This document shows positions 1,250-60,528 of a stretch of 64,000 bases of DNA, piece by piece. Source of the DNA: Balanoglossus misakiensis (Eukaryota; Animalia; Hemichordata); the NCBI GenBank assembly GCA_040954595.2, contig CM082597.2, positions 7,279,849 through 7,343,848 on the forward strand. Reading direction: 5' to 3'. Positions within the stretch are counted from its first letter, which is position 1; each line of letters begins with the position of its first letter. Under the pieces are notes generated by a model, which did no database searches, had not been told where the DNA came from, and was given only the letters and a program-made list of their open reading frames with translations. Made by a program: the position numbers and the translations under genes.

Positions 1250-2029
1250 TAGTGTACAGCTACGAGTGTGTGTCCTCTGTAACTGCCTTCCTTCGATAAC
1301 CATACAACAACAACCAGACGGTAAACGTTTATGCAATGGACAAATGTTTTAAACTTGGTCGACATTAAGGAAGTATGCATGAACAATCGATTGATTGGAT
1401 TCCCCAGCGATACTATTTTAACTTGCGATATTTTTGTGGTGAAACTGAAAATCGGCAGGCTGCATTGCCAGGTGTTCTGCACATGCGCTAGTTCCTCTGT
1501 CTTGAAAGAAAAGTCGAATTTCACCATCTTATAAATGTGCATTCGGAAAATAAAGCCAAAACGTATTCTTTGTGACCGAAAATACTGCTAGTGTGATTTT
1601 TATTGTTCAAATCCAACCTATTATTATTATTTAAATTGGTTTGTGATACCTCCTCGTAGCACAATTGTCATTGCAATGGACGGTTTTTAATAGGATTTTG
1701 GAAAAATGTATAATTTTAGCCCCCAAACGAGTGACATCAAAACGTGTGTTATCAAAACAAAAATCATATTTCTTTGTCTTTGACCTAAGGTACATATTTG
1801 GCGAAATTTCGGAGTGATCTGACTACTTATTAATGGAATTTTGTAAAAAAAAAGCATAATTTGAGCCCCAAAATAGTTGCCATAGAAACATGTGGTTACA
1901 AAATGGATATCATTTTTGTTCGTTTTGAGCCAAGATACCCCTATGATAAAATTTTCCTGGAAATTGGACCTATTATTATTAAAATTATGTTTATATAATT
2001 CTTTATTTAATTAATTATTTAATTTTGTT

Positions 2030-2480
2030 TTATTAAAAGAGGGTAGTCTGTGTTACAAAGTAAAATTGTAATATACAACAGAGCCCTCAAAGGCAAAAGG
2101 AGAATGAATACAACATTATGAATATTAATTAACAATGAATATTACATTATTACAATGTAAACTTTAACATATATGCAACTACCAGAAAATGTAAACCTGA
2201 TATAGCGCCGTAGGTTAAGTGCCCGAAAATTTGACAAGTCGTGGTTCCAACCTATACATGTAACATTATAAGATCTTAAGTATGATTCGGTTAACTTGCA
2301 CTCACCGAGATGGATATGATGGTGCTTGACAATGATAATACGGAATTCGAGCAAAATTTGGAAGATGGAATACGGTGTCTATCCAAAATATGAGAAAGAA
2401 ATCTGTATTTTGTTGTAGATGCTGTACAGTGGTTTATAGCCTGGATATTCGTATGCACCACTCCCATCCCAATCAAGTCA
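2030..2480 (-). mobile_element. Possible decayed 3' fragment of a non-LTR retrotransposon
   Basis: The minus-strand peptide ...YNVTCIGWNHDL... weakly resembles the C-terminal G..WN.L tail of CR1/L2 ORF2 and is followed by an A-rich tail region. Weak evidence. Confidence 0.25.
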
Positions 2481-2658
2481 AATATTCAATACGCCCCCCC
2501 ATAAAACTACAACAGAAGACCACTTTGCATTTCTCGATAACTGTACACCATATAACGCTGGTAACTCAATTCTTCCTGTCTGATTCACGTTTGCAGCTTC
2601 TGTATAACAATACCGTACATGTAGATAACCAAGAATAAGTGATTAAACTCTCTTTTAG

Positions 2659-5600
2659 GTGCTCTGGGAGGTTATACAACAAAAGACTTTTCACGATGGT
2701 AAGTTGAGAAGATAATCTACATTTGTGTAAATGATGGGTACAGACACTGATGTTTCTTTACTGACAGGTTTCTGTCTTAATTGCATGGAAAACAAAAATT
2801 CATCGAAATAATCGTAGACACATATATGATGTCATACTAGATTAGTCCGTTCACAGGTACAGCTTATAAAGTCACATGCCTGTGCAGTTTACTGCCAAAT
2901 GTAGCAGCTGTAGCTGTGTCTGCTAAATGTCATTCCTATAATGCACATTAAAGCAGTAATACCGATACTTTCAGAACAGATAATGTAGTTTAAACAGTAG
3001 TTACACAATTGAAGTCCTTCCGTTCTGGGACAAAGTGTGTCTCTCGCTGCCCCTTTGATACAAGACACACCGTTTATGTTATTCTACAAGTGGATATATA
3101 GTCAATCAACATTCAACCACACACAACTTCCATTCTACTTGTAGGATATGAGAGTAAAAATCTCGCCAAATTGAATAAATGGTAAAGATTGATTATTCAT
3201 GTTGGCGAGTGTTTCACTCCCATGTCTACAAGTGGGATTAAGTTGTGTGTGGCCGAACGTTGATTCACTATATGTATATCCACATGTAGAATAAACGGTG
3301 TCTTCTATCAAACATAATTAATGAAAGGAGGACGGCGAGAGAGAGACTTTGTCCCTTTAACACTTTAGTAATCTTCTTCTGTTTTCTTAGGTTTTCTTTC
3401 GTGATGAGCAGTAGCGGAGAGATCTTGTCCGTATTCTACGACAAGGAAGACAAACAGGACGTTGTTTCTCTGAAGAAACTGCTGATTGGAACTTTGTCTG
3501 CGAAGTTGCACTCAACAGAGGCGACAGTGGCAAAAGGGGCACCCTGGTCCTATAGGGTGAACGAAACAGGGCATGAAGGTGCGTCTATATTGGTTTGAAG
3601 AGTAAAATATATTCACAGAAAATATGCGAATGGCAAAGTTTGACAGTAAAAATGGCAGGACCACAAACACTGAGACTCAACTGTGGGTTTCTATAGTGTG
3701 TCTTTAGTGGAAAGAATATTGGCTTGCAAAGGTTTGTAATGCATGTTCTGCGGTCAAGGCATAATTACACGTGTATCTTCTGAATGCTATTTTCATGGTT
3801 TTGCTACATTATAATAAAGTAATATGCATTGAATATATGATATTCAAGTTGCAACAAAAGTATGCTCCACCTATAAAATATTTCATAAGGGAAACCACTG
3901 GACAATAGTGGTTGCCAGTTGTAGCGTTGGTTTTTCTTCTTGTCGGTTGTTGACATTTCGAACGTTTGTTTATATCAGCGTCAGCCTCTTGCAGTGTGTA
4001 CATCGTCTTCTTATGATCCAAATGAGATCTTAATCTCTCAATTACGTGAATATGTTATAGCAATTTAAGATATTCATAAATAATCTCCGATATTTTCTAA
4101 AGGAAATCACGAATCAACATATATTGTCAGCAAAGAGAGCAATGGACTGCTTTTCAAAAGGACAAAACATGGTCACGTGGTGGAGAATGCAGACGCAAAG
4201 CATGAGAAGGTAAGCTCTTATTTTCATGCTGCTTTCGAGGACGGTGCAATTAAAGGGACAAAGAGAGAGACTTTGTCCATTTAAGTGATATCACCGCGAA
4301 TGACTTTCAACACGACATACATGTGCATTCAGAAACCATGGATGTGTTCGTGACAGCGTTTTCAAATACTGCGAATAATCTTAATGATTTCTTCGAAATA
4401 GTCCAGAGCTCTATCCATACTTTCTAATAATTGCTTTTTTTACGGGGTGTGAAGTGACATTTACACATCCGGATCACATTGCACGAATGGTTATGATGTT
4501 AAGGTCTACACGGTCGCGTGCTATAAAATGACACCTGGTCAACACATAAGTACTGATCAAGGCACACATTACAACAATTCCGTTCCTGAAATCTCTGAAC
4601 AGGGGATAAACTTTCCATTGAAAGAACCAGGTCACATGTGTATGGGGTGAAAACGGCGCGTACTCGGCAATTTCCGGAAAATTCGCGCTGATTTTCTGCA
4701 CACACTACAACTTTTCGGGCTTTTTTTTAAGATTGGCGCAATATATTTACATCCATATTTGATATTTAATACCAATATATATACTAGTTTGTATTGTAAT
4801 ATTTTATTTCTCTGTAACAATAATAGAAACAGCGATAACTCGGATACAAATGAGTAATGACAACAAAACGGAGCAAAATGTGCCAGGACATGGACTTTAA
4901 GTTGCTTGTTTGAGTGTTTGCCACATGTGATAATCCTGCTCAATGTTTTGTGTTTGTGTTTAAACACTGATCAAGCAAAAAGCTTAATAAAACGGATAAT
5001 AATTGTGCGATCGATTGCACATTCCAAATACAATTTGAAGTTCCTAGGATGGATGGGGCAACCACTGTACGGGAGAAAATTTCCCTTTTCCTTGACAGTC
5101 AACAACATTCGTGTGTAGTAACTTCAGAACTTCGGAACCACGGAACTTAGGAACTTAGGCAACCTCACAAAAACAAGATTATTTTGTTTTGATCGTGTAG
5201 TATCGTAGTGCCGTAGTATCGTTGCAAAAGAAAATAATACTATACAAAGTGTAATGACATTTTGTGAAAATGTACAATATCAAAGCACAACAAAAAGATT
5301 CCATCACGATGCTACGGTACCACTGGTTATAATATGCGAAACTATAAGCGTGTTGTAATATGAAACTTGAGACTCAGACCATGACAAGCCAATTCTATTC
5401 TTTGTGGTGTCCTGGAACATTTGGTATGAAACTATAAATCTTGTTTCAAACACCCGAACGACACCTAAGGTACCATACCTGATCATAACATCGGGTTACC
5501 ACGTGGCTGCCTCCTGCTTTCAAAGCGATTTATTGTTCTATAATATTCCCATGTTTGTTCCGGGACATCAATGAGGAACACAACGTTGGCATTGTGTCAA

Positions 5601-8600: not shown

Positions 8601-11600
8601 TAGTTTCGTTTTACGATTCTAGTATCCGGCATTTTATAGGCCGTAGTTTGCAACCTTATTACATTTATTACAAGTCAATCAAGTTTTATTGGCCATGGTG
8701 TGGTATCCTGGAAATTGTGCTATGGCATCGCTGAAATTTATATTATATCCTAACTAGCCGTACCCGGACACCATGTTAATCCAAACAGTAATTAAACAAC
8801 TTGGTGACAGTGAAAAGAAAAACACGCAGGCATGATATATGAACCTTTTACATATACATTCAGTCAACAATAACAATAATAACAACAACAACACCAACAA
8901 CAACAACTGATAGTGATAAAATCTCCAGAATATTGTGGGACGGCGTTTGGAGTGGGGAGACTTTAGTGGGTTTTCGAAGAAAGAACTTATCAGAAATGCA
9001 TTGGTTTCAAATTTACTATTAATATAATACACGATGATGTATTTTTGCGAGGACATAGAAGGTAATGACACCTGGCTCTGAATTTCATGTGTCTTACAAT
9101 GTATACTTTCATGGTGATATATTTTACAGAATATACTATATGACCACGCCCTTCAGATACCTCGTACAGTTAACGTTCAGGAACACTTTGTCCCTCCAAA
9201 TAAGAAACACCACCGGTAGGTTGTTGTTTTGTATTTTGTTCGTCAGATGCAACGTTCATACAATCTTAAAGCAGAACATACCGAGCAAAACGCTTAAACA
9301 GATGTCGAATTTTAATATGTGGTAGGGGTAAATGGTATGTTTTCATTCCAACTAAATCATATATGATTACCAGATATGAATTAAGTATTGTAAGTATTTT
9401 CACATTCAAGACATGTTTGTTGTATAATTACAGTGAACCGTCGGTTGCTAAGGCCAAAGACGGTACAGAATCACTATTCGAAGAAACAGGTGAGTCCGTT
9501 ACCTTTGTGTTATTCCAATCGCTACTGTGGACAGTAACTCTATGCAGTTCGGCACTACACATTCCCAGGGAGCGAAATCACGTGTGGGTATTACACCGAC
9601 CCTCACCACCATGGTTTGATCCAAATCCATTGTCTTCTAAGGTAAAGTAAGACCTCAATAGCAGGAAACCGGGGATGAACTGGTTTAACTTTTTATCATT
9701 TTACAGATATTCCTGAAATGAAGAGCACTTCCCACAGCTCTCTGAAGTACACTGGTCAACAGTACACTGATGGCGCAAGTCCAATTCAAATCCCCGAGGG
9801 CCTGATCAAGGGCGGTCTGCAGATCGACAAGGTACGTGTATCCGTCGATATGGCGACCATATCGTCAAATTCGACTCTCTCCGCGACACACGTGGTCTCA
9901 ACAGACAGATCAGTGAGTGGCCGTGTGCTATTACTTGACTACAAATCCCTGGCAGGCTCGCAATTACCACAGGTCGCCCGATGTTTACAAAATTATTCAG
10001 TTGCCATATATACACAATAAGAAAAACGTAGACTGTGCATTGTCGTGTACAAGAGGAAACGCCACCAGCGACGAATCTCACGATTTCACTCTAAATGGCC
10101 CGTTAAGATCATACTTCTGATAAATATGATGTACCGTCAAAGAAGATGGCTGAACATACATGGGGAGACATGTATCGCTTTAGTACAAGACACAATATCC
10201 TTTGCAACAATTCATCCAAAGGTAACAACATCGATTGACATAGATTGTAGAACGCTTGTGGAAGCCATATGTGTATAATTGTTAGAAAATAGACATACAA
10301 ACACACTGTTTATGAACATTTGTTTGCTGCTTTGTCGTTATTATTGTACAGCTACCGGTGCCAAAGATACCTCTCTCTGAAAATGAACGACATATAGTTG
10401 GAAACATGACGTGTATTCAGATGAATCCATCGCCAAGTAAGCAGTTTTTACTCCTACATGTAGTTTAAAATCGCCATGTGATCATATGTAAAATCATGTT
10501 GATCTTTCCTAGAGTAAAGTCACTAAGCAGGTACTTTATAAGCGTATAGACATAAATGCAGTCACAACACATTTTGAGCATTTTGCACTGGTCATAATAA
10601 AAAAGATCCTAAACATGTATCTGCGAAAGTGCCAAATTTAGTGTCTATGTAAAACTTTGCATTTACTATACTTACACGTGTTATGCAATTTAATGTAGTA
10701 CTGTATTGTAGAGAATGAAACAATTTCAGTCAATATATTATGCAAATGATCTGTGTTAACGCTATGTTTTTCTTAACTTTTCCAAGGATCACCTGAAAGA
10801 ATGCAATGTTTTCAGAATATCATTCACATTGTTGGGCGGCTATCGGATGATGACTTGGAACTCTTTGCCACGGCGTACATTGAGCCCAATGCGAGCAGTC
10901 TGAACAGTACCCGGACAGCATTCAGGGATATCGCCGTCGACGCCTTGGGGGCAGTAGCTACCGAAATGGCACAGGAGCTTCTAGCTGACATGGTACTTTT
11001 GCACGAAAGACCAAATGGAAGCCTCATCGCACAGGCACTGATTCACTTTGTAGAACTCGATTGCCCTCCAGCAGACAAAGCTCTTGTGGCAATAACCAGA
11101 CTAGCGTTCAAGACAGAGTTAATGTTTACAGGTACGCCCATTACTGATCTTAGAATTGTATTTATACTAGTTTTGTTTTTATGTTTTAAACTTTTTTATT
11201 TTTATACTTTATAGTATGACCCCACGGTAGATTACAACCTTATAGGGGTCTCTACCCCTGTATGGGAAATCCTTTAATGTGAAATAAATAAAAATAAATA
11301 AATGAATGAATGAGTGAATGAATAAATAAATAAATATCATGTTGTGTCACTGTTCCAATATGAGTAACCGACAACCTTAGACGACTGTTAAAATCATGCG
11401 TTAATTATCACACACTTACGTTACATGCGAGATAAACGTACTTATGTTTATCACACAGAAGTGTATATATAACACTATTAAATGTGCCTTTGGAATTTCA
11501 TTATTATGTAGATCCGGAGGAGGTGGACCTTGTTCACAACAGAGCGATGTTAGTTCTTGGATCAGTGGCCAAGACTCTCAAGTCCTCGGAGAGAACGGAT

Positions 11601-12810
11601 GATCAGGAACGTGCTGATGACATTGTGAAAACAATTGAGGATTCTCTTGGTGTCCATGGTACGTACGCTGACTTTCTGCCCTGTCAGAATCGATGATCCT
11701 ATTTACTTCAAAATGTGTTACTAGGAAAACAGTATGTGCAGAGATGCCAACAAGCACACCCGGTACATGTACATTAATTTGCACAGGATTTTCTTGAGGA
11801 TGTACGTTGGTCAAAATTGAAAGTACTGCCATTTCTTTTGATTGGTGATTTTTGGATTATACTGTGTATGTATAATGAAAATCTGTGATAAAATATAGGG
11901 GTCACCGCGCTTGTTTTTGAAATACGGATCCATGAATTTAGTCGATAATAGAAGAAAACTACTACATAAAAATCTGACTGTCTTTTTTTTTTGTTTTAGA
12001 TTCCTGGCATCACCGACAGATACGTTCCACTCTTACAGATGTAGACTACAGTTACTTTATCCAAGAGAAGGCCACTTTGATCCATTCATTGGGGAACGCA
12101 ATCTATCCGTCTTCTTTTGAGCATCTGTTGTCTTATGTGAATAATTCGGACAGTCATCCAATACTTCGCAGAAGCGGTGTGCACGCTATTGGCAAATATT
12201 CACATCTGCAGGTGCGGTGGATGGATGTGCGTGCGTGTGATTTGTTTTTGTTGGATGGGTGTGTAGATGGGTGGGGTTAAAATTAGTGGAGATTGGTCAG
12301 GTTTGGTTGGGTGGCTACATGGATGGATGCATGCATGCATGGATTAATTGGTGCATGGAAAGACGGGTTGGACAGACAGACAGGCAGGCAGGCAGGCAGA
12401 CAGACAGACAGGCGAAAAATCAATCAAACGCAAACAAGCAGACAGACAGGCAGGCGAAAAAATCAAACAAATACACAGACTGACAGGCATATAGGTTGAG
12501 AGAGATGATTATGCATTTCACCCTTTAGTTTGTGCAGCATCCGGGAAAATGCCTATAATACCAATGTAGTTTCACGTCTTATAGTTTATATTCAATTTAA
12601 GAAGAAACATCGACTTTCGATATGTATTAAATATTGACAGTTACGTTCCAATGATACACAATAATCCAATGTGTTTCCTTCATAGGCTGCAAGGCGACTT
12701 TTGGACTCTGCATTACACGATGTTGATGAAACCGTGAGGTATGCTGCTGCAAGCGAATACTTGCGACACAGTCACACCAAAGAAATGGGCCACGTCGTTG
12801 ATGAAAACGG
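2659..12810 (+). CDS. Domain: vitellogenin-N / large lipid transfer (LLT)-like module (beta-barrel plus alpha-solenoid)
   Basis: DFSRWFSFVMSSSGEILSVFYDKEDKQDVVSLKKLLIGTLS...YRVNETGHEGNHESTY matches the LLT beta-barrel pattern. The helical part has AVDALGAVATEMAQELL, LVLGSVA, TLIHSLGNA (compare the LKALGNAG hallmark of vitellogenin/MTP) and DVDETVRYAAA. Confidence 0.7.
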
Positions 12811-42800: not shown

Positions 42801-45800
42801 ATTACAGATAGTCACGTACACTGATCGGCGGGACATGTTGTTTGTGTCGTGGTTTGGTTTCCATGATGACGAAAGTGGTATGAAATCTTACTCTGTCGCC
42901 CTCTATGACGGCATATCTTGTGGCTCTGTAGCCGATAAAATTATTCTCCAGGATTCCACTGATGTTTTGCCCAATGACACAGATTATACATTTGTTGAAT
43001 TGGACTTGCAGGTGAGTGAGTATATTCGTTGTCATAAAGGAACATTTTTCTCGGTATTTATTATTATTTATGTACATGTATTCATAAATGGATCAGTTTT
43101 ATTTCAGCGAGGTAATTTTATAATTATATCCTCGTTAAGCCTTTCTGCTTACAATAAAAAATCCGAGATGAAATTGTTCGTTAGTGAACGATTCATGTAT
43201 TGTTAGTCATATCCATTTAGCTCTCACCCCCTCACTCTTTGCCTGCCTATCTATTTGCCTATAGCTAGCTATCGGAAACAAAAACCCATTTAATATTATT
43301 AGTATTACCATCACTGTGGATTACTTTGCCTCCATTTTCTTTGTTTCAGCGGCAAAGACCCTATTTTGTCCATTTGAAATCGACTAATAATGCTGGTTTA
43401 ACAACGGCAATTGTCTCCCCGACTATCATACTTGATGTTGATGAACCAACTGAAGGAGTTGTCAAAGATGGACTGGATTTTGAGACTGACATTGAATACC
43501 AGAGTTCTACTTCGTCAATTGAAGGTAGCCAAAGCAGAGTTTCAAATTGCCCAGCTGATAACAATATGCATAGCAGTATGATTTTTAAAGCCAAATTAGT
43601 TCTATTGTTTGTACTTGTTCGATGTTATACTAGTAGTTTGAAATAAAAAAATAACCTAATGTAAACAGCCAGTCTTACTTTGGTTTCATTTTAAGGAGTC
43701 TTCCTGCACCTGCCCAATCCAAGTGGAGATTCTTGCCCAAGTCGAACATTTTCAATGCGCACGTACGATGCAGAATGGGGATCTGTGCAAACACGTGGTA
43801 TTTGGGGCGTCAATGATGCAGACACCATCGCATTCCGTCCACTGCAGGCAAGGCATCCATTAATTACTAATATCAATAATGATTTCACTGAAAACAGCAT
43901 GACTTAACTTTTAACAAAGGTACCTTTGTTAAATGAATTTTTAGTACACAGAGTAAAAGTGTGTACACATTATTATGAAATATGTACCACAGTATTCCAA
44001 GCGGGCCGTGCAATAATAATTCTGGTATTTTTGCGAGCTCATATGCAAATGAGCATCCAGAAGAATAAGATCCCCCATTTCCCCTTCAATCGATCGTATC
44101 TTTCAAAGTTTAACCCTCGTTCTGTTACACAATCACTTGGAGTTAATATAAACCTCCGGAGGATATAACAAAAGTTTTATTTCAGTCGCAAAAAAGCCGA
44201 TTGTTGTTTTAGTTGTGCGCGTGACAAAGTAGTATTTTTCACAACCCATATGCAAATGAGTAAAAACAAGCCGGACTACGTTTTGTTTGTAAACATTGAA
44301 CGCCGTCGGCAGAGCTGGAGTATGATCGCCGAAACGTGGGGAATTTTCAACATTCGGAGACGCCATTGTCTTATCCTTCCCAAATTTTGTCAGAATAACT
44401 AAACATTATTTGGCAGTATGTTTGGGAACCTCGGAAAATCCCTCGCTATCGCCAGTTTCTCAAATATTGCCGATGCTATCTTGCGACCTGAGCTAAACCA
44501 CCGATGAAATGAGCCAACATGATCGCCGAAACATGCGGATTTTTCAACATTCTGGCACGTTCTTTTATTATCCTTCCCAACTATCGTCAGAATAACAGAA
44601 CATTTAGTTGTCAGTGTGTTTTGGAACCTCGAAAATTACGAAAATTTCTCGCTATCGCCAGTGTTTCGAAATTTATCGCTGCGATCTCACGACCTCAGGT
44701 AACCCACTGATGGAATGACCCCACATGACCCTTCTTTGCATAACAAAGGTTGCGTCATTTTGGCCAATGAGCGGCCTCCTCTGGGTTGCATAGCCTTTGG
44801 CACATCACTGTAATGAAAATCAATACGCCACGATCGAAACTTTGATTTTCGTCAAATCTGGGGAAACATATGCAATAATAACAGAACTTCATGACCTCTG
44901 CGCGCGATCTGTGCAATATGGATGTTATTTTCACTCGTGAGAAGGTGTATTCTTCTGCATTTTTACTCGCTGTCGCTCGTAAAAATACTCGGAAGAATAC
45001 ACCTTCTCACTCATGAAAATAAAATCCATATTGCACAGATCGCGCGCAGAGGTCATGAAGTTCTGTCATATTATGAAATATGTACAATGTTCTGTTAATT
45101 GGTTTAATATGCGGAACACCCATTCAATTTGCAAGTTTCTCGGAGGTTTGAAGTAACTAAAGAATCCTATTCGTCTGCTTAGGGGCACATCAGTAATATT
45201 ACACAACTTCATGACCTCTGTGCGCGATGTGTGCCGTACAGAAGTTATTTTCATTAGTGATGCGGTGTATTCTGGGGCTGTACTTTCAAGAGCATAGCAA
45301 GTGAAAGTACAGCAGAATACTCCAAATCACTAGTTCAGTTATCTTTATAATCTGCATAATGGTACTATTCTACGTATTTTTCTCGAACTTCATGAACTTG
45401 GAACGTCCGTCGTGTAGCTGTCATTCAACGCTGATGACAGTCTCTCAGTTACACTGGTCCGGGATGTTAAAGATGCAAAAATGTACTCTGGGGCTTTGTA
45501 CCATTCGAAACCGGACATAAGTGAAGGTGGGAAATACCGAGTAAGTATAGTCGATACGTCATTGCTTATTTTGCCTAGCACCGTTTCATGAGCTGAAATG
45601 TAAGATATACGTAAAGGGGTTGCGTTGTGTGACAAATGCTCGTAGAAGACACACAAGAACGGGAGAATGCACAACAGATCTACAAACAATTCAAAAATCA
45701 ATCCCTCTGAAGTACAAGAATTAAAAAACAAAGATTTGAAAAAATGCACAGAGTTTTTTATTCACGATAGGTTGATATCATGGCCGCCTCTGGAGACATT

Positions 45801-47761
45801 GCTGCTGTTACAAGCCTTGTTTTCTGGGATGGTCCTGGCGGTGTGGTCGGTGATTTTCATCCTCTGTTTGAGGATACTGATTCTGCGCTTAATCCCAAAG
45901 ACTTCACTGCCTGCGAAGTGTGTTGTGCTAGCAACGATTCTTACACGGATCAAGGTAAGTATAATTATTCAGACATTCCTTCTCTAATAACAAATACATA
46001 TTCACAATAGCCTGATAACGTCTGTCTGTCTGTATGGTATGTCTGTCTGTCTGTCTGTTTGTCTATCTGTATGTATGTATGTATGTATGTATGTATGTAT
46101 GTATGTATTGTTTTGCAATACATACGTCCGATTAACCTTTTTAACGACAGACGCCAGCTGCCCATGTAACTGCACTGAGTACGCTGAAGTATATACCACA
46201 CTTTTTGCAACAAGTGGTTCCACCACAAGCATGACTACCAACCCATCGTCTGAAGCAACAACAACTTCCCCACCACCATGGCAGATCATTGAGAACAGGG
46301 ACGAAGGGGATACTTTTAAGGGAGATGATAGCTTGCAGTCAGTACAGTATCAGTCAGCAGGGTTTCAACTACACCCAGGTATGCAAACCATGCAACTTCA
46401 ATATCGTTGTTCATATTGGTGTGAGTATAAAATAATGTGGGGCACCTTCTGCAAGTGGTTTCTATGGTGTGATATCACAATTAATCATGCAAATTTTAAA
46501 CATATCCGATATTTTTAATATTAATTTAATCCACATATGAAGTATTTACTTTAAATTAAAAATTTTCGTTTTAGCTGTCGGAGTAGGCGACGATATAAAA
46601 CATTTTGCTGTGCTGTGGTACAGGTATCAAAATAATTCAGAACCCGTGAAGTACGATCTTGCCGAGTTAGATTTTGATCCATCACAGGCGTGGCATTCTT
46701 ACAGAATAGACGTAGTCAAGGAAATGGTGAGTAACCAGGATAGGTGAGAGAGATGCGCGCATGAATATGAAACCAATCATATTTTCTTCTCACGAACAAA
46801 ACTTAACAAAACAAGTTTATGCAGAATTTGAAATGGAAACAATGTAGCCACTTAGATGTCAAAGGAGCGAATATTTTGATCTTAACTAGTACTGTTTCCA
46901 CTCGAAAAACGATGTCCTCGTCGATATTACACAACCCTTAGAACAAATCTCATATTTCTTACAGGATGGAATTTCTCTGGAACTATTTGCAGATGGAAGA
47001 CTCATGGTATTACTGTCTGGAATTCCGAAGTTTTCACCCAATGCAAAGTTCATAATGTCGGTTTGGAACAGGGACGCTTATGTCCCACCACTTGATAACG
47101 TCTTTTATCCACCTATGACATCTGCACAATTTAGAAATATCAGGTATTCTTTCGTTTTTACTTGAACCCCCCCCCCCCAAAAAAGGTAATCTTAGTACAT
47201 TACTACATGTACCTTATAAACAAATTGTTTACAGCTTTTCATTCTTTGTTGTCCCTGATGACACGACCAGTATTTCCAATTTCAACTTCTTTTGTAATAT
47301 ACACATTTATAAAACATACTAAAATAATAAAATATATCTAATATATACATGATATCTAACGGATGTGTTATCGCGATGAATGACGCGCATTTCTTTGATG
47401 TCTAGATTCCCTCCATTGTCAGACGCATTATGCAAATCTGGCGAACCATTCCGTAATGGTGACCATGCAATAAAGGCCTTTTTCGCCGGAATTGGATCTG
47501 AAAAATTACAGGATGATGTCGTGTCATTCCGAGAGGTTTGTTTTTCATTTTGTGATATTTAATCAAATAAGAGTGATTTTTATATATATAAGGTTATATA
47601 TTATACTCACAAAGACACAGGGACTTTTATTATAGATTTTATAGCAAGTCTGTAAACAGTGAGACCCCGCCCACTAATTATTAATACAATACAACATACA
47701 TAATTTGTCTTATTTTGCAACGGCACCTTATGAACAGGTAAGGCATATTTGGTGCAAGAGA

Positions 47762-47792
<31 letters not shown>

Positions 47793-50700
47793 CATAGTAC
47801 ATACATACATACATACATACATACATACATACATACATACATACATACATACATACATACATACATACATACATTATACATACATACATATATACATACA
47901 TATACATACATAAATACAAATACATACATACATACATACACATACATACATACATACATACACACACATAATACATACATACATACATTATACATTCATA
48001 CATACAGACAGACAGACAGACGCTTTCATTAACACGGGAAGCTTTCTTGACAGGTGGAGAGACCTTGCCTACCATGTACCAATCCGTGTGAATCTGCAGC
48101 CTGTGATCCTGAGTGTTCTAATACTGATATAATGGAGTACCGGGTAATGCTGGATGGTCTAACTCTGAACCCGACAAGAACTGTACAAGATGGCGGAATC
48201 AATAGAACCATACCTGCTGTCTACCACCTGACAATCAAAGCTGTGACGGGTCAGTTTGAACATTGATTAGATGGTGTTAAGTGACATGTATATTCTTATA
48301 GCCCTCTGCCAAGCAAAGTAGATACTGGTATTTCCAATGGGCATACATTTTGAAGTACATGAAACAAAGTTGATAAAATGGCAAAGGCCATCTTAGTATG
48401 ACAGCCTGTAGCTAACTGTTGCACGTATTTCCCATGTTTTAAACTGTATAAGATTAACCAAAAACTCAAAATATGTTTGCATTTATGGAATGTCTGTCGC
48501 TCATCCTTATATGCACTCCATTTATAAACATTTGCCCATACATGTACCTGCATTTACAGGCTCTGGACGATATGTGCTCGCTTCATCAAATGGAGTGTAC
48601 GTAGACGACACGCCAACAGTATTTGATTATCTATACCACGTCGACGTCTCCTGGTCACTTGATCAACCGATCCAATACCAGGGCAGTAACACAACCATAG
48701 CTGTCCGCTGGAGTGCGTATGACATTGGAAGCCAGGTGTGTTTAGCTTGCGTCACGTGTTCTAACAAGTCCTAGATGTAATGAGATGCAAAATGTCGTGA
48801 ATAAGGCGTGAGTAAAGTGAATGCTTGCTATGATCTTGCAAGCCGAATGATTGCGTAACCCAGCACTAAACTTTATTCCAACCAAGGCAAACCTTCGAAA
48901 CGTTAAGCGATAAAGTAAAAATGGCTCCAGTAAACAAGCATCTTTATTGAGAAAAATAAAACACCAAGCGACTAATAGGCTAGTCTTAGCAACCTACTTC
49001 AATTACTTATCGATTGTAGGTACATGAATACAGATGGGCAATTGGAAGCCAGCCTAATGTCACTGATATACAAGACTTTGTGTCAGTCAGATTGAACACA
49101 TTTGCTGCGAATGATGGACTTCTTGGAATACTACAAAACAAAAACACTTACTATGTCACTGTACAAGCAGTCAACCGAGCTGGACTGGTCACTTCCCGTG
49201 AAACCACAGGTTAGTTCCCAAAGGTCTTCGTTACAAAAGGTCTTCAAGCGTATGTCCACGCTGATGGATAAAACTCAATCTACCATACATGTACATGTAG
49301 TTTGCACGTGATGGCTTTCAAAATTCTTCTCTAGTGAAAATATTCACTCTTCCATAACACTCTAATATTCTAGTCGCACCACAAAGCAAACGTAACTTGA
49401 CATCAAAGTACACATGGATTATATGTTCCATGATATTGCACTGAAGTTTTAGCAAGTTGTTTTATCGATGTAAAGTTTCGTCACAACATAACAAAAGGCA
49501 GGCGTGATTTCTCAACCTGAATACATGTACACCGGTTGTTACTTAGTTATTTTGCTTCCAATCAGTCCTGTGAAATAGAGCACGAACACGGGCGACGGCT
49601 GCAAAATGGGACATTATACGTAAATATAATTCGAAAACTTCGCACAGACAGAAATTGATGGATCTTGTCAGTCCCACTTTCTTTATCCTGTATTATGATC
49701 AATGCACTCGACTGAAAAGTTTAGGGGAGACGGTTACATCGAATCACTCCGCTCGGATAAAGAAGTTAGAGTTCCTCTCTTTCTTGAGGGACTGTGTTCC
49801 CATGTATACATACTGTGTATCATTGCTGGAATTGTTTAATTATGCATTCAATATTTACCTAAGGATTATATGATGTTTTAAACAGGAGTTACCGTTATAT
49901 TATCATCACCCGACATCTCAGCAAGCAATTCTACAAGCGAGTGCCCGGATGTCGAAGTAAACACATCAGTTCCTGGCGCTATGCTTTGTGGGAGTCAGTC
50001 AAGTACAGGGATGAAATGGACAAGGGTGGACGATGATTCAATCGATGCGTATTGTGAGTTACCCCAGAAATACTCAGTATTTGCCATTTGCTATCTGGTA
50101 CATACGTATTACATGGTAGTTGTTACCAAATACTACATTACGTATTAGTCGTAGTAATAACGTCTACTTTGTATCCCATGTTAACTGCACATATACATTA
50201 TTCCTTCACCGTTAAATTAAGTCTAACTCCAATAATGTCTGTGTTATTCCTTCAGTTTTCTCAATAGGAAGTTCCAAAGACACAGAGGATATATTGGCAA
50301 AACTCCAAGTCAGTTACAACACATCTGGTGAAGTAGTAATACAAGACGGACTTGTGTACATCGGAAATAAGCCTGTGCTGAATATTTCAGATGCAGGGCA
50401 GCCTTCGACAGGAGCTACTGAGTCACCGGGTGTAATTAAGAACAGATTCCGTATGGAACCAGGAAGGTACCTCATTCCATTCCATTCCTTACCTTAGTTT
50501 ACTAAAACAAAACTCATATTGACCCCTGTGGTAGCTCGTGATTGGTTCTGGTGAATGTCCCTCTGAATTTATTTGATGGCTTTGAAAGATGCAAAATAAA
50601 GTGATAATATATTGACTACAACTAATCGAAAACAACATTAAATTTACATGTTTTATGTAAGTAATCAATCAAGTTTTCAATTTCCATGTTTATTTTCAGA

Positions 50701-53700
50701 ACAATGTTTTCTAAAATTACTGTGTGCAACAAGGGACATACATGTGGTGAAATGGCAACTTCTACAACGACCATATCGAGTAAGTGTGGTTTACGTTGAA
50801 TCACTTACAGGGAGGGGTCACCCAGGGTTAATTTTCCATACATGTGGCCTTGGATTACTTATGAATGACCCACTGCATTGCATATGCATTTTGCATCCAT
50901 TAAATCAATAGTTCCTCGCACCTGTACTACATTGATTGAGACCAGGTCACATAGTATAACAGTCAACCTATTGCGCTTTTCCCCCACAATGCATTATTGT
51001 GATGCCATACAAATATAGTGTTCTGCTTGGTTTACCAAAACGGGTGACGTGGTTGATGAAAGCGACTTCTATTGGCTAACTGACCTCCCAGGACACATAT
51101 ACATGTATGCAAAATTACCCTTGGTGACCTCATACATTTATGGAAGCTTTGTTCTAATTTAGGTGTCGAAGTATAAGCCATTCAAGGCAAGCCATTTAAA
51201 AAAAATAGTCGAATGTGGAAATACGTTGAAATCAACTTCATGCATGTAATGTTAATTACATTTTAAATAACTGTTAAGTCGCGCGTCAGTAAACAAAGTC
51301 TACAGTAATTTCATCTAAACAAAACGATATATGCGGGTCATCATTTTTTATTCACAATGGCTGTAATATCTTGGCACACAGGAAATGGCGATGCTATAGC
51401 CAGTGCTGTCAACGGTTCTGATGTGCATATATCATTGTTTAATGATGATACGTTTATCACAATTCAGGCAGGTAGGTACAATTGTTACTAAATATTGTGA
51501 GTTTCAATGGTTATCATTTAAATATATCTTTATAGTTCGGGGAGAAAGCTTACTTATAAACACGCCTGTCGTTCCCTCGTTGAAGTTTTGACGTGGATCT
51601 TTAAGTAAACATATATATGAGCAACCGTATTGAGGCCAGTTGTACATACACACAGAAAGTGTATGCTATATATAATACACTACATGTTGATGGTTACAGT
51701 CACTTTTTTTCTCTTTTTACATTCCTTATTACAAAGACCATGAGTCAGCTCAAGATGTGACGTTAATGGCCGGTGTATTATCTGATGATGACTTGAGTGA
51801 CATGTATGTGTCGGATGCTTCGCGAGATTTCAAACCATTCATCGTGAGTCCAGACATGACAATGGACAAAACGGGCAGACTATTGAGAAACAGGTGATAG
51901 GTCTTTCAAAGTCTTATAATGACATGATGGCCAAAAAGATGCTCCTACTATAATCGCACACATTATTGCATGTGTATATTTTTATCAATCACTCTCAATT
52001 TGCAATGCGGTACCACATTTTAACATTTCTATCAAAATCATTTATGCTTTTCAAATGTACTTAAATGTAGAAATATTACTTGCCCTTTGAAAGGATTGGT
52101 TTATTCTGGCTTCATCTTAAACGCAATATTTTATGTTGAGAAATAAACAAAAAATAACCTCCTCGGTGTTCAGTATAATGAAATCATTTCTCCCTAAATT
52201 CATAATTTCGTATGCACGTATCTGCCCCATTTCTTACAGAATCAAAGGCATTAGTGGTCCTTCATTTTATGCGACAACCGTCGGACGCAAACAGATGAAT
52301 GGTCCATTGAATCTAACCGTTGGATTCAACGCGTCACAATCTAGCGATTCCGCGGAGACTGAACACAGAGAACCAAAACTGCTATTTTGGCAAACAGGTA
52401 CATAGTTTTCGCAATCTTATGCGACTGTTTCTAGACGTTTCAGTGGGGGCAAATGTTGTTTGTGATAAATGTTATACATTGCCATTCAGTCATGAGTATG
52501 TTGAAGGATCAAGCAACTATCACGTACATTTTATCAGAATTCTCAGACAAAAAAAACATTTCATGTACGTTGCATTTCTTTGAATGATATCACTTTGTAA
52601 TCGGCCAAATTCAACGTCAGCTATATTAGTTATGTTGAGAATTATTGTAAATTTACATTTGTTAATGATTGTATGATATGTTCAATTAGGCTTAAGTGCT
52701 AGAAGACATTTTCAGACATATCTCACATAATTCTTACATTTTGACCCGGACAGACATGGGAGAATGGCGAGACTCTAGCCACACATGTGTCGGTTCAGAA
52801 GATGTCTATCACTACGACTGGAACATCGGAACATTAAGTGTGCTGGTAACTTGGTGTTGTAATTTTGTTCGAAATGAGTCGTATTTAAAAGAAAAAGTGA
52901 CGTTTTAGATTTAGAAGAAATCATGGTGGTGATTATTTGATACTTATTCAATTGGAAATAATTCACATTCTTCATTTTGCTATACAACTAGGTCTATGCC
53001 GTAGAATTCAAAACAAATGTAAAACTTTTTTTTTTTTTCATTTTTGTGTTGTCGTCAGGTGTGTTCAACTGAAAGGCGGAAGAGTGATCATACTTCAGCA
53101 AAAAGTACCTTCTTTACGGGACCCACACTCTTCACCGTAGCGAGTATCGGCCCATTCGTCAACTCTCCACCATCGATAACGTCTGTCAGCGACTTGTGGA
53201 TGCCAGAGGATGCTGGGACAATTCAGTTTCAAGTGCAAGCAGACGACAGTGATTATGACGACGTTAAATTTGCTTTAGACGGCAACAGTGCACGTGGTAC
53301 AAGAAGCGGGGAAAGCAGTGAGGTATCCCTGTCGCAAGATGGAAGTCTATCATACAAACCCTGCTTGGACTGTTTTGGGGTAAAACTGGTGCGAATTCTG
53401 GCCACAGAGAATAGACAGGACAAACATCGAGCCTTGGCTACATCGTCAACTTTACAAATAGACGTACGTAGCACCAATGATAACCCGAATATTTTCTCCG
53501 TCATTGATTACTCGAATGTTGTCGATGGAATGGTTCTAAAACAGATGGTGCAGATAGAGGAAAGAAAACAAGATGGCGATGGCGACAGCGGCATTGAAGT
53601 TGTAGTTGGAGCATTCGATCCGGATACGCATGACACATTGAGTTTGCTTTTTGATCCTCCCCAACACGGCACCCTTCACACTGGTGAGCAACACAGAGAA

Positions 53701-55783
53701 GTTGACTTCATCAATGAAGACTGTTTAGCAATGTCCAACGTCACAGAAGATTACTTGAGCTACAACAGCTCCGATGTGTCCACCGTTTTATTCCCGTGCG
53801 GGTTACCAATCCCTCACAGGGCCGACCAGCTGGCGTGGGTGTTCGCTGCAGTCAAGTATGTCCCGGATGTGGACTTCCATGGCGAAGATTCCTTCATGCT
53901 GAACGCTGTTGACCGGAGCGGTGCTCATTCGGACGTCATAACTGTCAGGGTGTACGTTCTGGCAAATCCGTGCTTGAACGGCGGTGTCTGCAACGGAACA
54001 GACTCGGATGCAGATTGCGCAAGCATGGATCGATCGAAGGGATTCGATGGTTACTCCTGTGACTGTCCACCTGGTTATATCGGAGAATACTGCTCTAATG
54101 ACCACAATGAGTGTGAATCCAATCCGTGCCCAGCTAACTTTACATGCATCAACCAGGTGAGACCCTAATGAATATGCAAATTTCGTTAAAGATTTCTGTT
54201 TCTATTGATATTAATAGTATGAAAAGTGATGTGTATGGGTACCTTGACACATATACATGTACCTAGTCCTGCATATCATCTGAATTCAAGCATTTTCATT
54301 TTGCTCCCAGATAAATTCTTTCGCGTGTTATTGTGAACACTTGGACTGGCCTTGTGGTGGTAGATTTTCCCCAACTGTCATTGTTGCCGCCTCCTGTTCA
54401 GCTGTTGTTTTTGCTTTGGTTGTCATCGCCTTATGGAGAATAATGAACTCAAAGAAACAGAAAAATCTCAAAGTAGCGTAAGTTTTATTATCAAATGTTG
54501 TCTTTCATGATATATCACATCTACTTCATCTCAAAGATGACCTCTTAATATGTTGATACAATAAAGTGTAATATTACGCAAACTTGTCTATTTCAATGGC
54601 CAGTGGGAAATTTTCACTTTTATCGCAATGTTCTGTAGCCCAGAAATCGATCACCTGGCGATGACCCTTGACCAAAACCCTGACAATCAAGGTGAGAGTC
54701 TCGAGTTGACCGGCAATAATAACGATGATGTCACTTCTGGCAAGAACGAAACGAAGACAACGGAAGACGAAATCGAAGAGGAAGTCGACATTGATGATAT
54801 CGAAGATGTTCAACATCTGCCAGACAAATCGGCAAAAGTAAGAAATTTAAAATTCTATCCATTTAACTAAAACAATGTTTCATTTTCTCTTTCAGTTATA
54901 AATTCATACTTGCGAGATAAATAATGTTCAATAATATAAAGTCTATTCACATAAAGGTGACCGAATATTTTATTTGTTTCTTTCTGGAAAATGATGCTTC
55001 TTATTTTGATTAGTTTGTGCACGATAGTTGTTTGGAAGTTGAAATTCATTTCCTATTTTATTTTAGCCATTGCAGGACGATGGTGACGCGTTGACCAAAG
55101 ACGAGAAACCGGAAATTGTGCCCATGGTACCTCAACGTTTTGGATTTGTGGACAGACCAATGATGCCGGTGAGCAATCTTTGTCTCTCTGTATGTTCGTG
55201 AGTGTGTGTTTGTGTGTGCCTATCTGCCTGTCTCACTGACTGATTGAGTGACTGACTGACTGCCTACATGTTTGATGACTGTCTCTATTTGTGTGTTTGT
55301 TTGTTTGTCTGTCTGTCACTGTCTTTCTTTCTGTCTGTCTGTCTGTCTGTCTGTCACTCTGTCTGTCTGTCATTCTGTCTGTCTGTCTGTCTGTCTGCCC
55401 GACTGTCTGCCTGACGAACAGACCGAACAACTGACTGCTTGCCTGCCTACTTGCATGTCTGTCTCTGTCACTGTATGTATCACTTTAAAACTCTTAATAT
55501 ATTGGATATTAGGAATTCAATTGTCAATATACACCATTTTCGACTGTATAGTCGGATTGACCAAATAGCGATCAGTTTCACAAGAAGCTGAATCAACTCT
55601 TTAAACTGTAATGGATGAATTATTTTGTTCATTATTCCGAAATTTGTTAGCCAAAGTTATTACTAGGTTAACTTTTCCCTTTTACAGCGACGCGCATGGG
55701 GACGAGCTGCTTCTTCCAGACCAGTTTCTAGAAACAAGGTGGCTCCCTTGATGGAATCGACATTGGTCCAAAAGCTTGAATAA
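2659..55783 (+). CDS. Giant multi-exon single-pass membrane protein (>=5,068 aa, 5'-incomplete): LLT/vitellogenin-N, M23/LECT2-like, FN3-like array, PAN, GH16-like, cadherin-like, EGF, TM
   Basis: Manually spliced exons (AG..GT, four GC donors): 2659-2698, 3391-3578, 4103-4209, 9130-9215, 9434-9489, 9707-9831, 10352-10436, 10787-11131, 11512-11658, 12000-12211, 12686-12810, 13342-13523, 14270-14415, 14770-15102, 15754-15896, 16138-16351, 16511-16677, 16878-17040, 17159-17293, 17922-18104, 18379-18547, 19885-20045, 20511-20652, 21130-21342, 21865-22013, 23085-23214, 23513-23631, 24106-24265, 25466-25536, 25988-26145, 26749-26959, 27505-27723, 28042-28248, 28761-29066, 29327-29450, 29593-29764, 29983-30077, 30602-30781, 31124-31304, 31863-32029, 32354-32527, 32787-32978, 33423-33602, 34039-34283, 34763-34887, 35298-35463, 35663-35825, 35967-36132, 36489-36763, 37065-37291, 37521-37730, 37959-38205, 38603-38809, 39328-39421, 39553-39816, 40210-40346, 40476-40736, 40966-41230, 41819-41948, 42114-42371, 42808-43011, 43350-43524, 43696-43847, 45418-45540, 45771-45954, 46151-46378, 46575-46726, 46965-47143, 47406-47535, 48054-48249, 48560-48735, 49020-49209, 49886-50053, 50256-50466, 50700-50779, 51382-51471, 51737-51893, 52240-52397, 52754-52845, 53059-54156, 54311-54477, 54639-54837, 55067-55168, 55688-55783 (stop TAA). 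The phases join into one frame, and the summed length closes in frame at the stop. The first exon starts in phase 1, so the start codon and signal peptide lie further upstream. Individual boundaries may be off, or small exons missed. Confidence 0.88.
3027..3360. mobile_element. MITE family A (long TIR, TTAA-flanked, Kolobok-like termini), copy 1
   Basis: GGGACAAAG..CTCTCGCTGCCC at the left end and GGCGAGAGAGAGACTTTGTCCCT-TTAA at the right; near-palindromic body. Confidence 0.85.
4250..4284. mobile_element. MITE family A collapsed remnant (termini only)
   Basis: TTAAAGGGACAAAGAGAGAGACTTTGTCCATTTAA. Confidence 0.65.
8130..8316. mobile_element. Short TIR element (TTAA-type)
   Basis: TTAA-AGGTATACAGTCACCT ... 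AGGTGACCGTATACCT-TCAA. Confidence 0.7.
12220..12490. repeat. Degenerate (GATG)n/(CAGA)n/(CAGG)n microsatellite tract
   Basis: Directly visible tetranucleotide repeats. Confidence 0.8.
13625..13897. mobile_element. MITE family C (PIF/Harbinger-like, TAA TSD), copy 1
   Basis: TAA-GGCCAAAAATAAAAAATATGTGCTGTT ... AACAGCACATATTTTTTTATTTGGCC-TAA. Confidence 0.85.
14770..16930 (+). CDS. Domain: amphipathic alpha-helical (apolipoprotein-like) region
   Basis: LVTQFDKVVDNVVGAIRDTMAKFAELL..., VVEQITEAIAAAKSAMELL and LKTYEAVSQVIENVKSGYETIKYGYEKAKSFL show regular 3/4-spaced hydrophobic periodicity over about 300 aa. Confidence 0.6.
15186..15542. mobile_element. MITE family A copy 2
   Basis: TAAAGGGACAAAGTCTC...GAGACATTGTCTCTTTAA; body homologous to 3027-3360. 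Confidence 0.85.
16701..16777. repeat. (TATG)n microsatellite
   Basis: Directly visible. Confidence 0.95.
16950..18040 (+). CDS. Domain: LECT2/peptidase M23-like, predicted non-catalytic
   Basis: Spliced sequence TDCGRGFYPTTRKGMPPGIDLEIRNGRVLVSPYTGNVTR...IIINHV...VFKGKQLGRVTQSGCTPNVIHLAM...YMDPTKYI. It aligns motif by motif with M23/LECT2 (H.G.D, APF.G, KG..LG, H.H, DPT.YL). Confidence 0.8.
17530..17873. mobile_element. MITE family A copy 3
   Basis: TTAAAGGGACAAAGTCTCTCTCTCGCTGCC ... GGCAGCGAGAGAGAGAGACTTGTAACTTTAA. Confidence 0.85.
18988..19721. mobile_element. 734-bp non-autonomous DNA transposon (TTAA TSD, Kolobok-like)
   Basis: TTAA-GGTGGCATTGCATGAAA ... TTTCATGCAGTGCCACC-TTAA, inserted in a degenerate (TGAC)n tract. 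No transposase ORF. Confidence 0.85.
22730..23049. mobile_element. Non-autonomous hairpin-bearing repeat, homologous to 862-1249
   Basis: Shared blocks with 862-1249; internal inverted repeat at 22918-23028. Confidence 0.75.
24325..24558. mobile_element. Short TIR element with TTAA TSD
   Basis: TTAA-CGGGAAGCGGTCGTCGCGCCGCGT ... ACGCGGCGCGACGACCCCTTCACT-TTAA. Confidence 0.75.
24597..24912. mobile_element. Hairpin-bearing repeat element
   Basis: Near-perfect inverted repeat at 24597-24739 (AGCAATAAAACACCCCCAGCCATGGTATACCACGAGA... and its reverse complement). Confidence 0.75.
27505..50779 (+). CDS. Domain array: about 19 fibronectin type III-like repeats
   Basis: Recurring unit D.TPP..G.V.DG....D..YQ......A.W..F.D.ESG+..Y...+G......D+......L..G..YY.TV.A.N.AGL....S.G..VD, for example at 32400-32978, 34763-35463, 37959-38700, 42330-43440 and 48560-49209. 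The count is by eye. Confidence 0.85.
28860..29345 (+). CDS. Domain: PAN/Apple
   Basis: TPTRCAQQCLPLSNCQSFNYDFGSSGRCELL...FYYFEK fits the C-x3-C-x5-C-x-SFNY-x7-C-x-L core. Confidence 0.8.
30145..30502. mobile_element. MITE family A copy 4
   Basis: TTAAGGGGACAAAGTCTCTCTC ... GAGAGAGGCTTTGTCCCTTTAA. Confidence 0.85.
31309..31616. mobile_element. MITE family C copy 2 (opposite orientation, TAA TSD)
   Basis: Homologous to the reverse complement of 13625-13897; flanked by TAA at 31306-31308 and 31617-31619. Confidence 0.8.
32547..32669. repeat. About 120-bp inverted repeat (hairpin element)
   Basis: AATCTGATTAAAATCAGATGTAAGGAACGGCGACGT ... ACGTCGCCGTTCCCTACGTCTGATTTTAATCAGATT. Confidence 0.8.
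32983..33302. mobile_element. MITE family C copy 3 (TAA TSD)
   Basis: Colinear with 13625-13897; flanked by TAA at 32980-32982 and 33303-33305. Confidence 0.8.
41386..41612. mobile_element. MITE family A copy 5 (truncated)
   Basis: ...TCTCGCTGCCCCTTTTCCATTAATTA...GATACAAGAC... homologous to the other copies; right end missing. Confidence 0.75.
43770..47143 (+). CDS. Domain: GH16 (lichenase/beta-glucan-binding) ConA-like fold, predicted non-catalytic
   Basis: LSVTLVRD...MYSGAL...GGKYRVDIMAASGDIAAVTSLVFWDGP, then LDFDPSQAWHSYRID...LELFADGRLM...IPK...KFIMSVWN...AQFRNIRF. This parallels Bacillus-type lichenase motifs (YGLYEVRMKPAK..GIVSSFF.YTGP; LGFDA...YHTYAFDW...WYVDG...IP...KIMMNLWN). Confidence 0.72.
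44320..44715. repeat. Diverged tandem duplication (about 197 bp x2) inside an intronic repeat
   Basis: ATGATCGCCGAAAC..G.G.ATTTTCAACATTC...CTCGCTATCGCCAGT...CGACCT occurs at about 44322 and about 44519. Confidence 0.7.
44875..45340. mobile_element. Hairpin-bearing repeat element
   Basis: Inverted repeat at 44881-45066 (ACAGAACTTCATGACCTCTGCGCGCGATCTGTGCAATATGGAT... and its reverse complement), plus a third arm copy at about 45205-45260. Confidence 0.8.
46020..46108. repeat. (TCTG)n/(TATG)n microsatellite
   Basis: Directly visible. Confidence 0.9.
47762..48021. repeat. (CATA)n/(CAGA)n microsatellite
   Basis: Directly visible, about 260 bp. Confidence 0.95.
53059..54355 (+). CDS. Domains: two cadherin-like/bacterial Ig-like repeats, then EGF and calcium-binding EGF
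   Basis: VNSPP...MPED...QADDSDYD...LSYKPCLDCFG...DVRSTNDNP; AFDPD..D.L...PQHG...YVPDVDFHGEDSFMLNAVDRSG; NPCLNGGVC...YSCDCPPGYIGEYC; DHNECESNPCPANFTCINQINSFACYC...C. Confidence 0.85.
54377..54436 (+). other. Transmembrane helix (type I topology)
   Basis: VIVAASCSAVVFALVVIALW followed by the basic stop-transfer segment RIMNSKKQKNLK. Confidence 0.85.
55180..55480. repeat. (TCTG)n/(TGAC)n microsatellite
   Basis: Directly visible. Confidence 0.9.
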
Positions 55784-57774: not shown

Positions 57775-58030
57775 TGACTCTCACTTTTTGTTTCACTTTT
57801 GACATTAAAGAGGGTGTGACTGCAGAGAAGTGTGAAATACAAAATATGTTGTAAGGGAATATTGTATGTTAGTTGGTCAGTTGGTTAGTGAACTGGGGAA
57901 CTTGGTTTCGGTTAGTAGGTTAGTTGGTTAATGCAAACATTCCTTGATTCCCTTACAACATATTTTGTATTTGATCTCTCTACAGTCACAACCTCTTTGA
58001 CGTCATAAGTGAAACAAAAAGTGAGAGTCA
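57775..58030. mobile_element. Palindromic MITE nested in the transposon
   Basis: TGACTCTCACTTTTTGTTTCACTT...AAGTGAAACAAAAAGTGAGAGTCA; arms of about 90 bp around a (GGTTA/GTTA)-rich spacer. Confidence 0.75.
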
Positions 58031-60521: not shown

Positions 60522-60528
60522 ATTGCCT

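Follow-up and report, generated by a model that had tools for sequence, protein, structure and literature searches.

The window, the 64-kb stretch of DNA analysed here, contains a predicted gene, and sequence comparison confirms that it has one reading frame for a giant, predicted surface protein, of which 5,092 amino acids (aa) lie within the window. Its architecture defines an uncharacterised protein family that, by homology, is found in hemichordates, amphioxus, echinoderms, annelids, brachiopods and molluscs, with an additional relative in a chytrid. The family is real and widespread and has an unusual, predicted membrane-anchored and split architecture within the LLTP superfamily; its lipid function is putative. 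We tentatively favour, at somewhat less than an even chance, the reading that the protein is a cell-surface lipid scavenger, in which a furin-processed, MTP-like lipid-capture head would be carried on a stalk of 19 FN3-like repeats, a proposal drawn from homology and fold models. The domain order given in a sequence-only reading of the same DNA, namely a lipid-transfer (LLT) region, an RKRR site, helices, an M23-like domain, an RSRR site, about 19 FN3 repeats with PAN and GH16 insertions, a cadherin-like region, EGF repeats, a transmembrane helix (TM) and a tail, is supported by the evidence below.

Gene structure

The window is intron-rich eukaryotic DNA of ~39% GC. The gene occupies 2659..55783 of the + strand, as do all features below, and comprises 84 coding exons (15,281 nt) encoding 5,092 aa plus a stop. 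It was assembled with a self-trained exon-chaining script whose seeds were chosen by eye from stop-to-stop translations. In its first form the chain was unbroken, with 83 exons and 4,932 aa. After six manual edits it had 84 exons and 5,058 aa, running from 2659 to the stop at 55783, and eight splice-site edits at places where homologues showed gaps brought the product to its final length. This independent chain has the same ends as the single 84-exon reading frame claimed earlier. All 83 introns end in AG; 79 start with GT and four with GC. The chain scored 1400 on the + strand versus 97 on the − strand, a comparison that is partly circular because training used + strand seeds. The true start of the gene is upstream of 2659: the signal peptide and first ~80 aa were not found within the 64-kb window, and a signal peptide is present in the orthologues.

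That two or more neighbouring genes were merged by the prediction is scarcely credible. The annotation of Ptychodera relatives as pieces of 712-1404 aa might suggest it, but these pieces begin mid-domain, and single proteins of 5,100-5,400 aa from amphioxus, annelid and abalone align collinearly with the window protein. Single homologue segments span 82 of the 83 introns, and the last intron has tail similarity to P0001 as its sole backing. A gene break between 26959 and 27505, which had been considered, is unlikely, as 20 records (some of them isoforms or alleles) cross this junction. Branchiostoma (amphioxus) P0173 aligns as one BLAST segment over aa 8-4900 with 37% identity, and P0183, P0178, P0028, P0117 and P0062 each give a collinear alignment made up of two or three segments. 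Moreover, the 4,046-aa relative P0169 is one unbroken frame of 12,138 nt (L001 160-12297) on a 14,481-nt metagenome contig, whose source is a transcript or an intron-less gene. Cluster mates of P0169 are found on contigs of 14.5-14.7 kb.

Several repeats were observed in and around the gene. A repeat of 230-370 bp, present in both orientations in five introns (3040-3367, 15178-15543, 17523-17854, 30138-30505 and 41380-41610) with copies 75-84% alike, looks like a small non-autonomous transposon. Two more dispersed repeats are intronic or upstream (983-1251 and 22817-23050; 31305-31611, 32984-33305 and 13635-13901). Downstream of the gene, a 248-aa open frame at 58369-59112 (+) matches a YqaJ-like nuclease with 30.8 bits (cut-off 22) and probably derives from a mobile element. 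Positions 60524-61043 and 57775-58030 hold a tandem duplication of ~190 bp at 95% identity and an 86-bp inverted repeat.

A lipid-transfer head and its probable sheets

About a third of the protein is LLT-related. For the N-terminal beta-barrel (aa ~1-215; 2659..9876), residues 116-199 of orthologue P0028 match PF01347 positions 84-163 at E 5.8e-4, under the cut-off. For the alpha-helical domain (aa ~229-542; 10355..13372), residues 191-468 of orthologue P0170 match PF01347 positions 312-554 with 27.9 bits, above the cut-off of 24. PF01347 (LPD_N) is also precomputed for P0177 and P0178 and is below cut-off in P0062. The window's own single exons gave no PF01347 match alone, and the window protein is tied in by BLAST homology. 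The family thus has the LPD_N barrel and helical domain by which the LLTP superfamily is recognised, and the earlier LLT call holds. Pfam scans that covered 77 exons of the window and 34 relatives did not list the DUF1081 and VWD domains of vitellogenin and apolipophorin. P0170 alone had no match among PDB sequences, and a whole-length profile (A5) searched at E up to 1 found EGF, FN3, M23 and LECT2 but not LLTP.

In MTP the lipid site is described as lying between a C-sheet and a longer A-sheet clamped by the helical domain (available text of PMC6717300). The segment after the helical domain (aa ~552-642; 13388..14772) is a probable C-sheet, judged from its position, its predicted strands, which are of low confidence (pLDDT under 50), and its amphipathicity. 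A second candidate sheet lies far downstream, just before the stalk. Here, helices are followed by a long amphipathic beta-sheet (aa 1412-1638, strands ~1450-1630; 23521..26929) that probably resembles the A-sheet of MTP, on sequence and model evidence that is weak but convergent. A 10-row profile of this region matched MTP 746-827 in the PDB at E 0.6 with one gap in 83 columns, while the other PDB matches of that profile fell on a preceding helix. PF19444, the MTP lipid-binding domain, was matched in three of 17 members (best E 0.0018) and PF09172 in one of 17, and the beta-sheet Pfam families matched by aa 1450-1630 were exclusively LLTP ones. In a Foldseek search with a model of P0173 530-1725, MTP took ranks 3 and 5 (E 7.5e-4; aligned range not given).

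All these A-sheet matches are weak (E 0.002-0.6, none past a cut-off), which counts against lipid capture. A broader, more diverse profile found no match in the PDB, and MTP was absent from the best 50 VIA rows, which cover only residues 196-632 of the model. The model itself, which includes the insert described below, has pLDDT 63 and pTM 0.31. For the A-sheet candidate, the Atlas matches were limited to unnamed clusters and generic outer-membrane barrels, and a complex prediction of the helical domain and C-sheet with the A-sheet (P0183, run without alignments) gave 'no answer' with a score of 0.00. In favour of lipid capture, hydrophobicity is concentrated on one face in the C-sheet (strand periodicity z 4.7), the A-sheet (z 5.0) and the helices between them (helical periodicity z 7.7), but not in the FN3 stalk (z about 1).

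A complete MTP-like lipid module therefore appears to be present, split by an insert of ~800 aa that contains helices, M23, a SAP-like motif and a Cys domain; we infer the pairing of the two sheets across it. The LLT module recognised in the sequence-only reading is present, but it is larger than was seen there: it probably includes an A-sheet at aa ~1450-1630, so that M23 sits inside the lipid module. We propose that the beta-barrel, helical domain, C-sheet and distant A-sheet could fold into one MTP-like lipid cavity with the insert looped out, and that the amphipathic helices of the insert may add lipid-contact surface. An LLT fold need not carry lipid, however, as the crustacean clotting protein is described as an LLTP (available text of PMC8545670).

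Furin-type sites and release of the head

LLTPs are commonly cut by furin, according to the available text of PMC8545670 and PMC8416765, which favours the lipid-capture reading. Four basic sites are positionally conserved in the family. Site 1, RKRR (aa 547-550; 13385..13396), precedes the C-sheet, and 12 of 15 aligned members have R-x-K/R-R here. Site 2, RSRR (aa 1124-1127; 18487..18498), follows M23 and has the motif in 5/11 members versus a background of 3.9%. Site 3, after the A-sheet, has R-x-K/R-R in 5 of 23 members and a dibasic or RxxR sequence in 16. Site 4, near the membrane, has the strict motif in 25/43 members, although not in the window protein; the background for sites 2-4 is 2-4%. 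The window protein is strict at sites 1 and 2 only and dibasic at 3 and 4, so the A-sheet, stalk and TM would remain in one 437-kDa piece. Furin cuts at aa 550 and 1127 would give pieces of ~61+, 65 and 437 kDa, which the MTP-like fold could hold together.

The four conserved sites also raise the alternative of a precursor whose head or whole ectodomain is freed by furin as a circulating lipid carrier, with the anchor serving biosynthesis only. Site 4 in particular is strict in over half of the members, four complete or nearly complete members terminate with no TM, and crustacean dLp/HDL-BGBP is described in the available text of PMC8416765 as a 4,831-aa LLTP cut into three. In the window protein, however, the dibasic state of sites 3 and 4 would leave the A-sheet on the stalk, and we consider release very unlikely.

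Site 4 is in a ZU5-like domain (51745..53157) with a basic loop before the last strand. Its ZU5 identity is a lead only, with an Atlas score to the ZU5 cluster of 0.83, which is below 0.9. In most relatives the polybasic loop is right ahead of the last predicted strand. Self-associated cleaved receptors are a precedent for a cut ectodomain held by one strand, and by analogy a cut in this loop could leave the ectodomain attached in the same manner.

Disarmed enzyme folds and microbe recognition

The insert begins with an amphipathic helical bundle (aa 643-942; 14773..16923), for which the four-helix-bundle matches are generic. Matches of this bundle to TTYH channels and ClyA-type pore formers were likewise dismissed as generic, with rmsd mostly 7-10 and no hydrophobic segment there. 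Next is a degenerate M23/LECT2-like domain (aa 943-1092; 16924..18393) with a net charge of +12. When this domain was folded in orthologue P0173, rather than in the window protein, Foldseek gave probability 1.00 to many M23 chains and VIA a Z of 10-12; LECT2 matched with Z 12.1 and rmsd 2.8 over 114 residues at 24% identity. The M23-like call is therefore supported. By the motif definition in the available text of PMC9662197, an M23 peptidase has both H(x)nD and HxH. Among 11 members HxxxD is present in three, HxH in two and both in none, and in the window domain the first Zn His and the catalytic His are missing, leaving only the Asp and the last His.

Between M23 and the A-sheet candidate, at 20511..23180, are a SAP-like helical motif (aa 1198-1244) and a Cys-containing beta domain (aa 1245-1397). 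The SAP-like motif is a lead only, with PF02037 precomputed for P0179. The Cys-containing domain is an unnamed repeat domain that in the window matches DUF7821 weakly (E 0.033). It is repeated ~11 times in P0179 and ~8 times in P0180, both mollusc relatives.

Two further modules interrupt the stalk. A PAN/apple domain inside repeat 2 (28827..29359) was detected in the window's own exon by PF00024 with 28 bits (cut-off 21.4). Inside repeat 17 is a non-catalytic GH16-fold domain with a Cys- and Thr-rich loop (43719..47418), identified from the fold model of a relative: residues 123-495 of P0048 (pLDDT 76) match a Bacillus beta-glucanase in Foldseek at E 2.7e-10, which bears out the GH16-like call. 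The inferred site of the catalytic motif, the strand at 46354-46368, was placed by pattern only, as profile A7 did not reach GH16 chains. The motif E-x-D-x-(x)-E of GH16 hydrolases is present on the corresponding strand in none of 28 members, and the pattern occurs elsewhere in the domain in one of 31. Both enzymes are thus disarmed, as had been claimed.

These two folds are the basis of the main rival to lipid capture, a microbe-binding surface receptor or opsonin in which GH16 would bind beta-glucan, M23 peptidoglycan and the LLT sheets LPS or lipoteichoic acid. Apart from the presence of both disarmed folds, this is favoured by the basic charge of M23 and by reports, in the available text of the sources, that DUF1943 and VWD of crab vitellogenin bind bacteria (PMC7949091) and that non-catalytic GH16 proteins act as insect recognition proteins (PMC6403176). 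Several paralogues are found in hemichordates and amphioxus in a quick tree of 38 rows, from which P0028 and ten near-duplicates were left out, and the C-terminal end of one amphioxus form carries Sushi repeats and a C-type lectin. However, degenerate M23 folds mostly bind proteins (available text of PMC9662197), which weakens the suggestion that M23 is a peptidoglycan module. The GNBP-like role suggested for GH16 fares no better: its five best fold matches are bacterial 1,3-1,4-glucanases, and a GNBP-type N-terminal glucan-recognition domain was not listed in Pfam scans of window exons and relatives, an absence that in such scans is not decisive. The long Cys/Thr loop is inserted beside the GH16 catalytic strand, M23 and GH16 show the same degree of conservation as the remaining sequence (20-41%), and the chytrid member has an M23 domain without any His and no detected GH16. 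We therefore regard microbe recognition as the main function as unlikely. It can be combined with lipid capture if the side domains capture and the head extracts lipid; in the scavenger that we favour, the disarmed M23, PAN and GH16 would attach the head to particles, microbes, mucus or partner proteins.

Stalk, anchor and tail

The stalk consists of 19 FN3-like repeats (aa ~1655-4345; 27523..50452), two of them interrupted as above. They were defined by a repeat profile, and PF00041 is above cut-off in orthologues. Repeats 2-16 have a net charge of -119 and the stalk contains 41 sequons. The same type of repeat occurs in the large prokaryote-type proteins P0041 (25 copies), which comes from a bacterial MAG, and P0106 (7 copies). 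The stalk is followed, after the ZU5-like domain, by a cadherin-like (Big_9) region and EGF repeats (53170..54361); the window's own exons gave 33.9 bits for PF17963 (cut-off 23.6) and 20.4 for EGF (cut-off 21.5).

Alternatively, the protein could have a structural or adhesive role in the glycocalyx, in mucus, in a cuticle or in an egg coat, with the stalk as a spacer and the LLT head polymerising or anchoring on lipid surfaces. A very long, acidic, sequon-bearing stalk with cadherin-like and EGF modules would suit this. The similar repeats of the bacterial protein P0041 and the side-by-side occurrence of anchored and unanchored forms in the family are consistent with such a role, which nevertheless leaves unexplained the amphipathic sheets and a furin site kept at one position in most members. 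We consider it quite improbable.

A single transmembrane helix (54377..54436, hydropathy peak 2.87) precedes an acidic cytoplasmic tail of 142 aa without a tyrosine (54437..55783). The proposal of a membrane anchor stands for the window protein, but the anchor is optional in the family: 38 of 47 members have a TM after the cadherin-like region and, of the nine without, four end in other domains and five are truncated. The tail is 12-25% identical between orthologues, with a short motif common to the hemichordate relatives, and two tail exons gave no Pfam match. Because it has no tyrosine and is so poorly conserved, it argues against signalling on its own; it has neither the signalling domain nor the tyrosine motif of a signalling receptor, although signalling through a partner receptor would be possible. 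The description of the protein as a sensor consequently finds no support in the tail, and it is weakened further by the members that have no anchor and by the chytrid member, which retains the head and M23 but has no detected GH16. The lack of a tyrosine motif also weighs against microbe recognition and, as an endocytic motif is missing, against lipid capture. In the favoured reading, lipid would reach the cell by hand-over or endocytosis rather than act through signalling.

Family and distribution

Querying 1.84 billion representatives with P0001 returned 221 matches at E up to 1e-30, of which many were EGF-only, and 30 of the 150 listed were named. Named relatives include Saccoglossus, Glandiceps, Branchiostoma, Anneissia, Amphiura, Owenia, Lingula, Lineus, eight mollusc genera and the chytrid Geranomyces, and each of these records either is uncharacterised or has an automatically assigned name. 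At 63-64% identity, a fragment from Ptychodera flava comes closest. Among those named, proteins of vertebrates, arthropods and nematodes matched at EGF repeats at most, in a sample too small to prove loss. Orthologues with the same domain order and 27-41% identity are XP_006820036.1 (Saccoglossus), CAH1259453.1 and XP_078620548.1 (Branchiostoma), P0178 (Owenia), XP_067664253.1 (Haliotis) and XP_060074374.1 (Ylistrum). Their database names (CRB1, SELE, Vitellogenin) are automatic and reflect single domains, and orthologue C-termini vary between EGF-TM, Sushi plus C-type lectin, and an extra cadherin-like region. The Saccoglossus paralogue record P0024 begins with a WAP domain instead of the lipid head, by either domain swapping or a gene-model error. 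In the literature searched, which did not extend to subscription papers and supplements, no paper was found on the architecture or on six orthologue gene ids, in agreement with the earlier statement that no characterised orthologue is known. It had been allowed that uncharacterised homologues might exist; they do, and they form a widespread family rather than a one-off.

The chytrid protein combines a signal-like start and an LLT barrel with a C-sheet, M23, an A-sheet and 25 repeats, and no GH16, PAN, EGF or TM was detected in it. Region profiles were built from the window and eight relatives, so matches on those nine are circular, whereas those on chytrid and metagenome proteins are not. The head, site 1, A-sheet and repeats are a common core that extends to the chytrid and to unnamed metagenome proteins. 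The lipid-type head and repeats look like the oldest part, with GH16, PAN and the anchor as later additions, and the retention of this core favours lipid capture.

Discussion

The cited literature, in its available text, divides LLTPs into three soluble or luminal groups: apolipoproteins, vitellogenins and clotting proteins, and MTP. The family could be an overlooked fourth branch, older than animals and unseen among the vertebrate, arthropod and nematode hits, in which a stalk-mounted MTP-like cavity draws lipids from microbes or food particles caught by the disarmed M23 and GH16; we regard this as a doubtful proposal. If true, a type I membrane LLTP with a split MTP-like module would widen the picture of LLTPs across many marine invertebrate phyla and a chytrid. 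It would also suggest, in a form open to test, how lipids are taken up or microbes captured at ciliated and mucous surfaces, and would hint at what the LLT fold did before animals arose.

Among known systems, LECT2 and the bacterial LytM factors EnvC, NlpD and DipM likewise have an M23 fold without the full catalytic set, whereas the window M23 probably lies within an LLT module and is also missing its first zinc histidine. The insect proteins GNBP/beta-GRP share a GH16 fold without catalytic glutamates; the window GH16 differs in having bacterial 1,3-1,4-glucanases as best fold matches, in lying inside an FN3 repeat and in having no detected N-terminal recognition domain.

MTP is the best LLTP match of the window family by sequence profile, Pfam and Foldseek. 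Its large subunit (PDB 6I7S) has the same order of beta-barrel, helical domain, C-sheet and A-sheet, as described in the available text of PMC6717300. MTP is a contiguous, luminal protein of about 890 aa with PDI as partner and without a membrane anchor. The window protein departs from this definition of the MTP subfamily, with 5,092 aa, ~800 aa between the sheets, a furin site before the C-sheet, and a 3,400-aa stalk and TM after them.

Crustacean dLp/HDL-BGBP and insect apolipophorin II/I are large LLTP precursors cut at furin sites, as is predicted here, and dLp/HDL-BGBP couples lipid transport with beta-glucan binding (available text of PMC8416765 and PMC8545670). Both are secreted, and that text lists LPD_N, DUF1943, DUF1081 and VWD for them and no FN3 stalk, M23, GH16 or TM. 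On this text (PMC8416765, PMC8545670), the nearest precedent for the window protein is the crustacean dLp/HDL-BGBP precursor, a secreted LLTP cut by furin.
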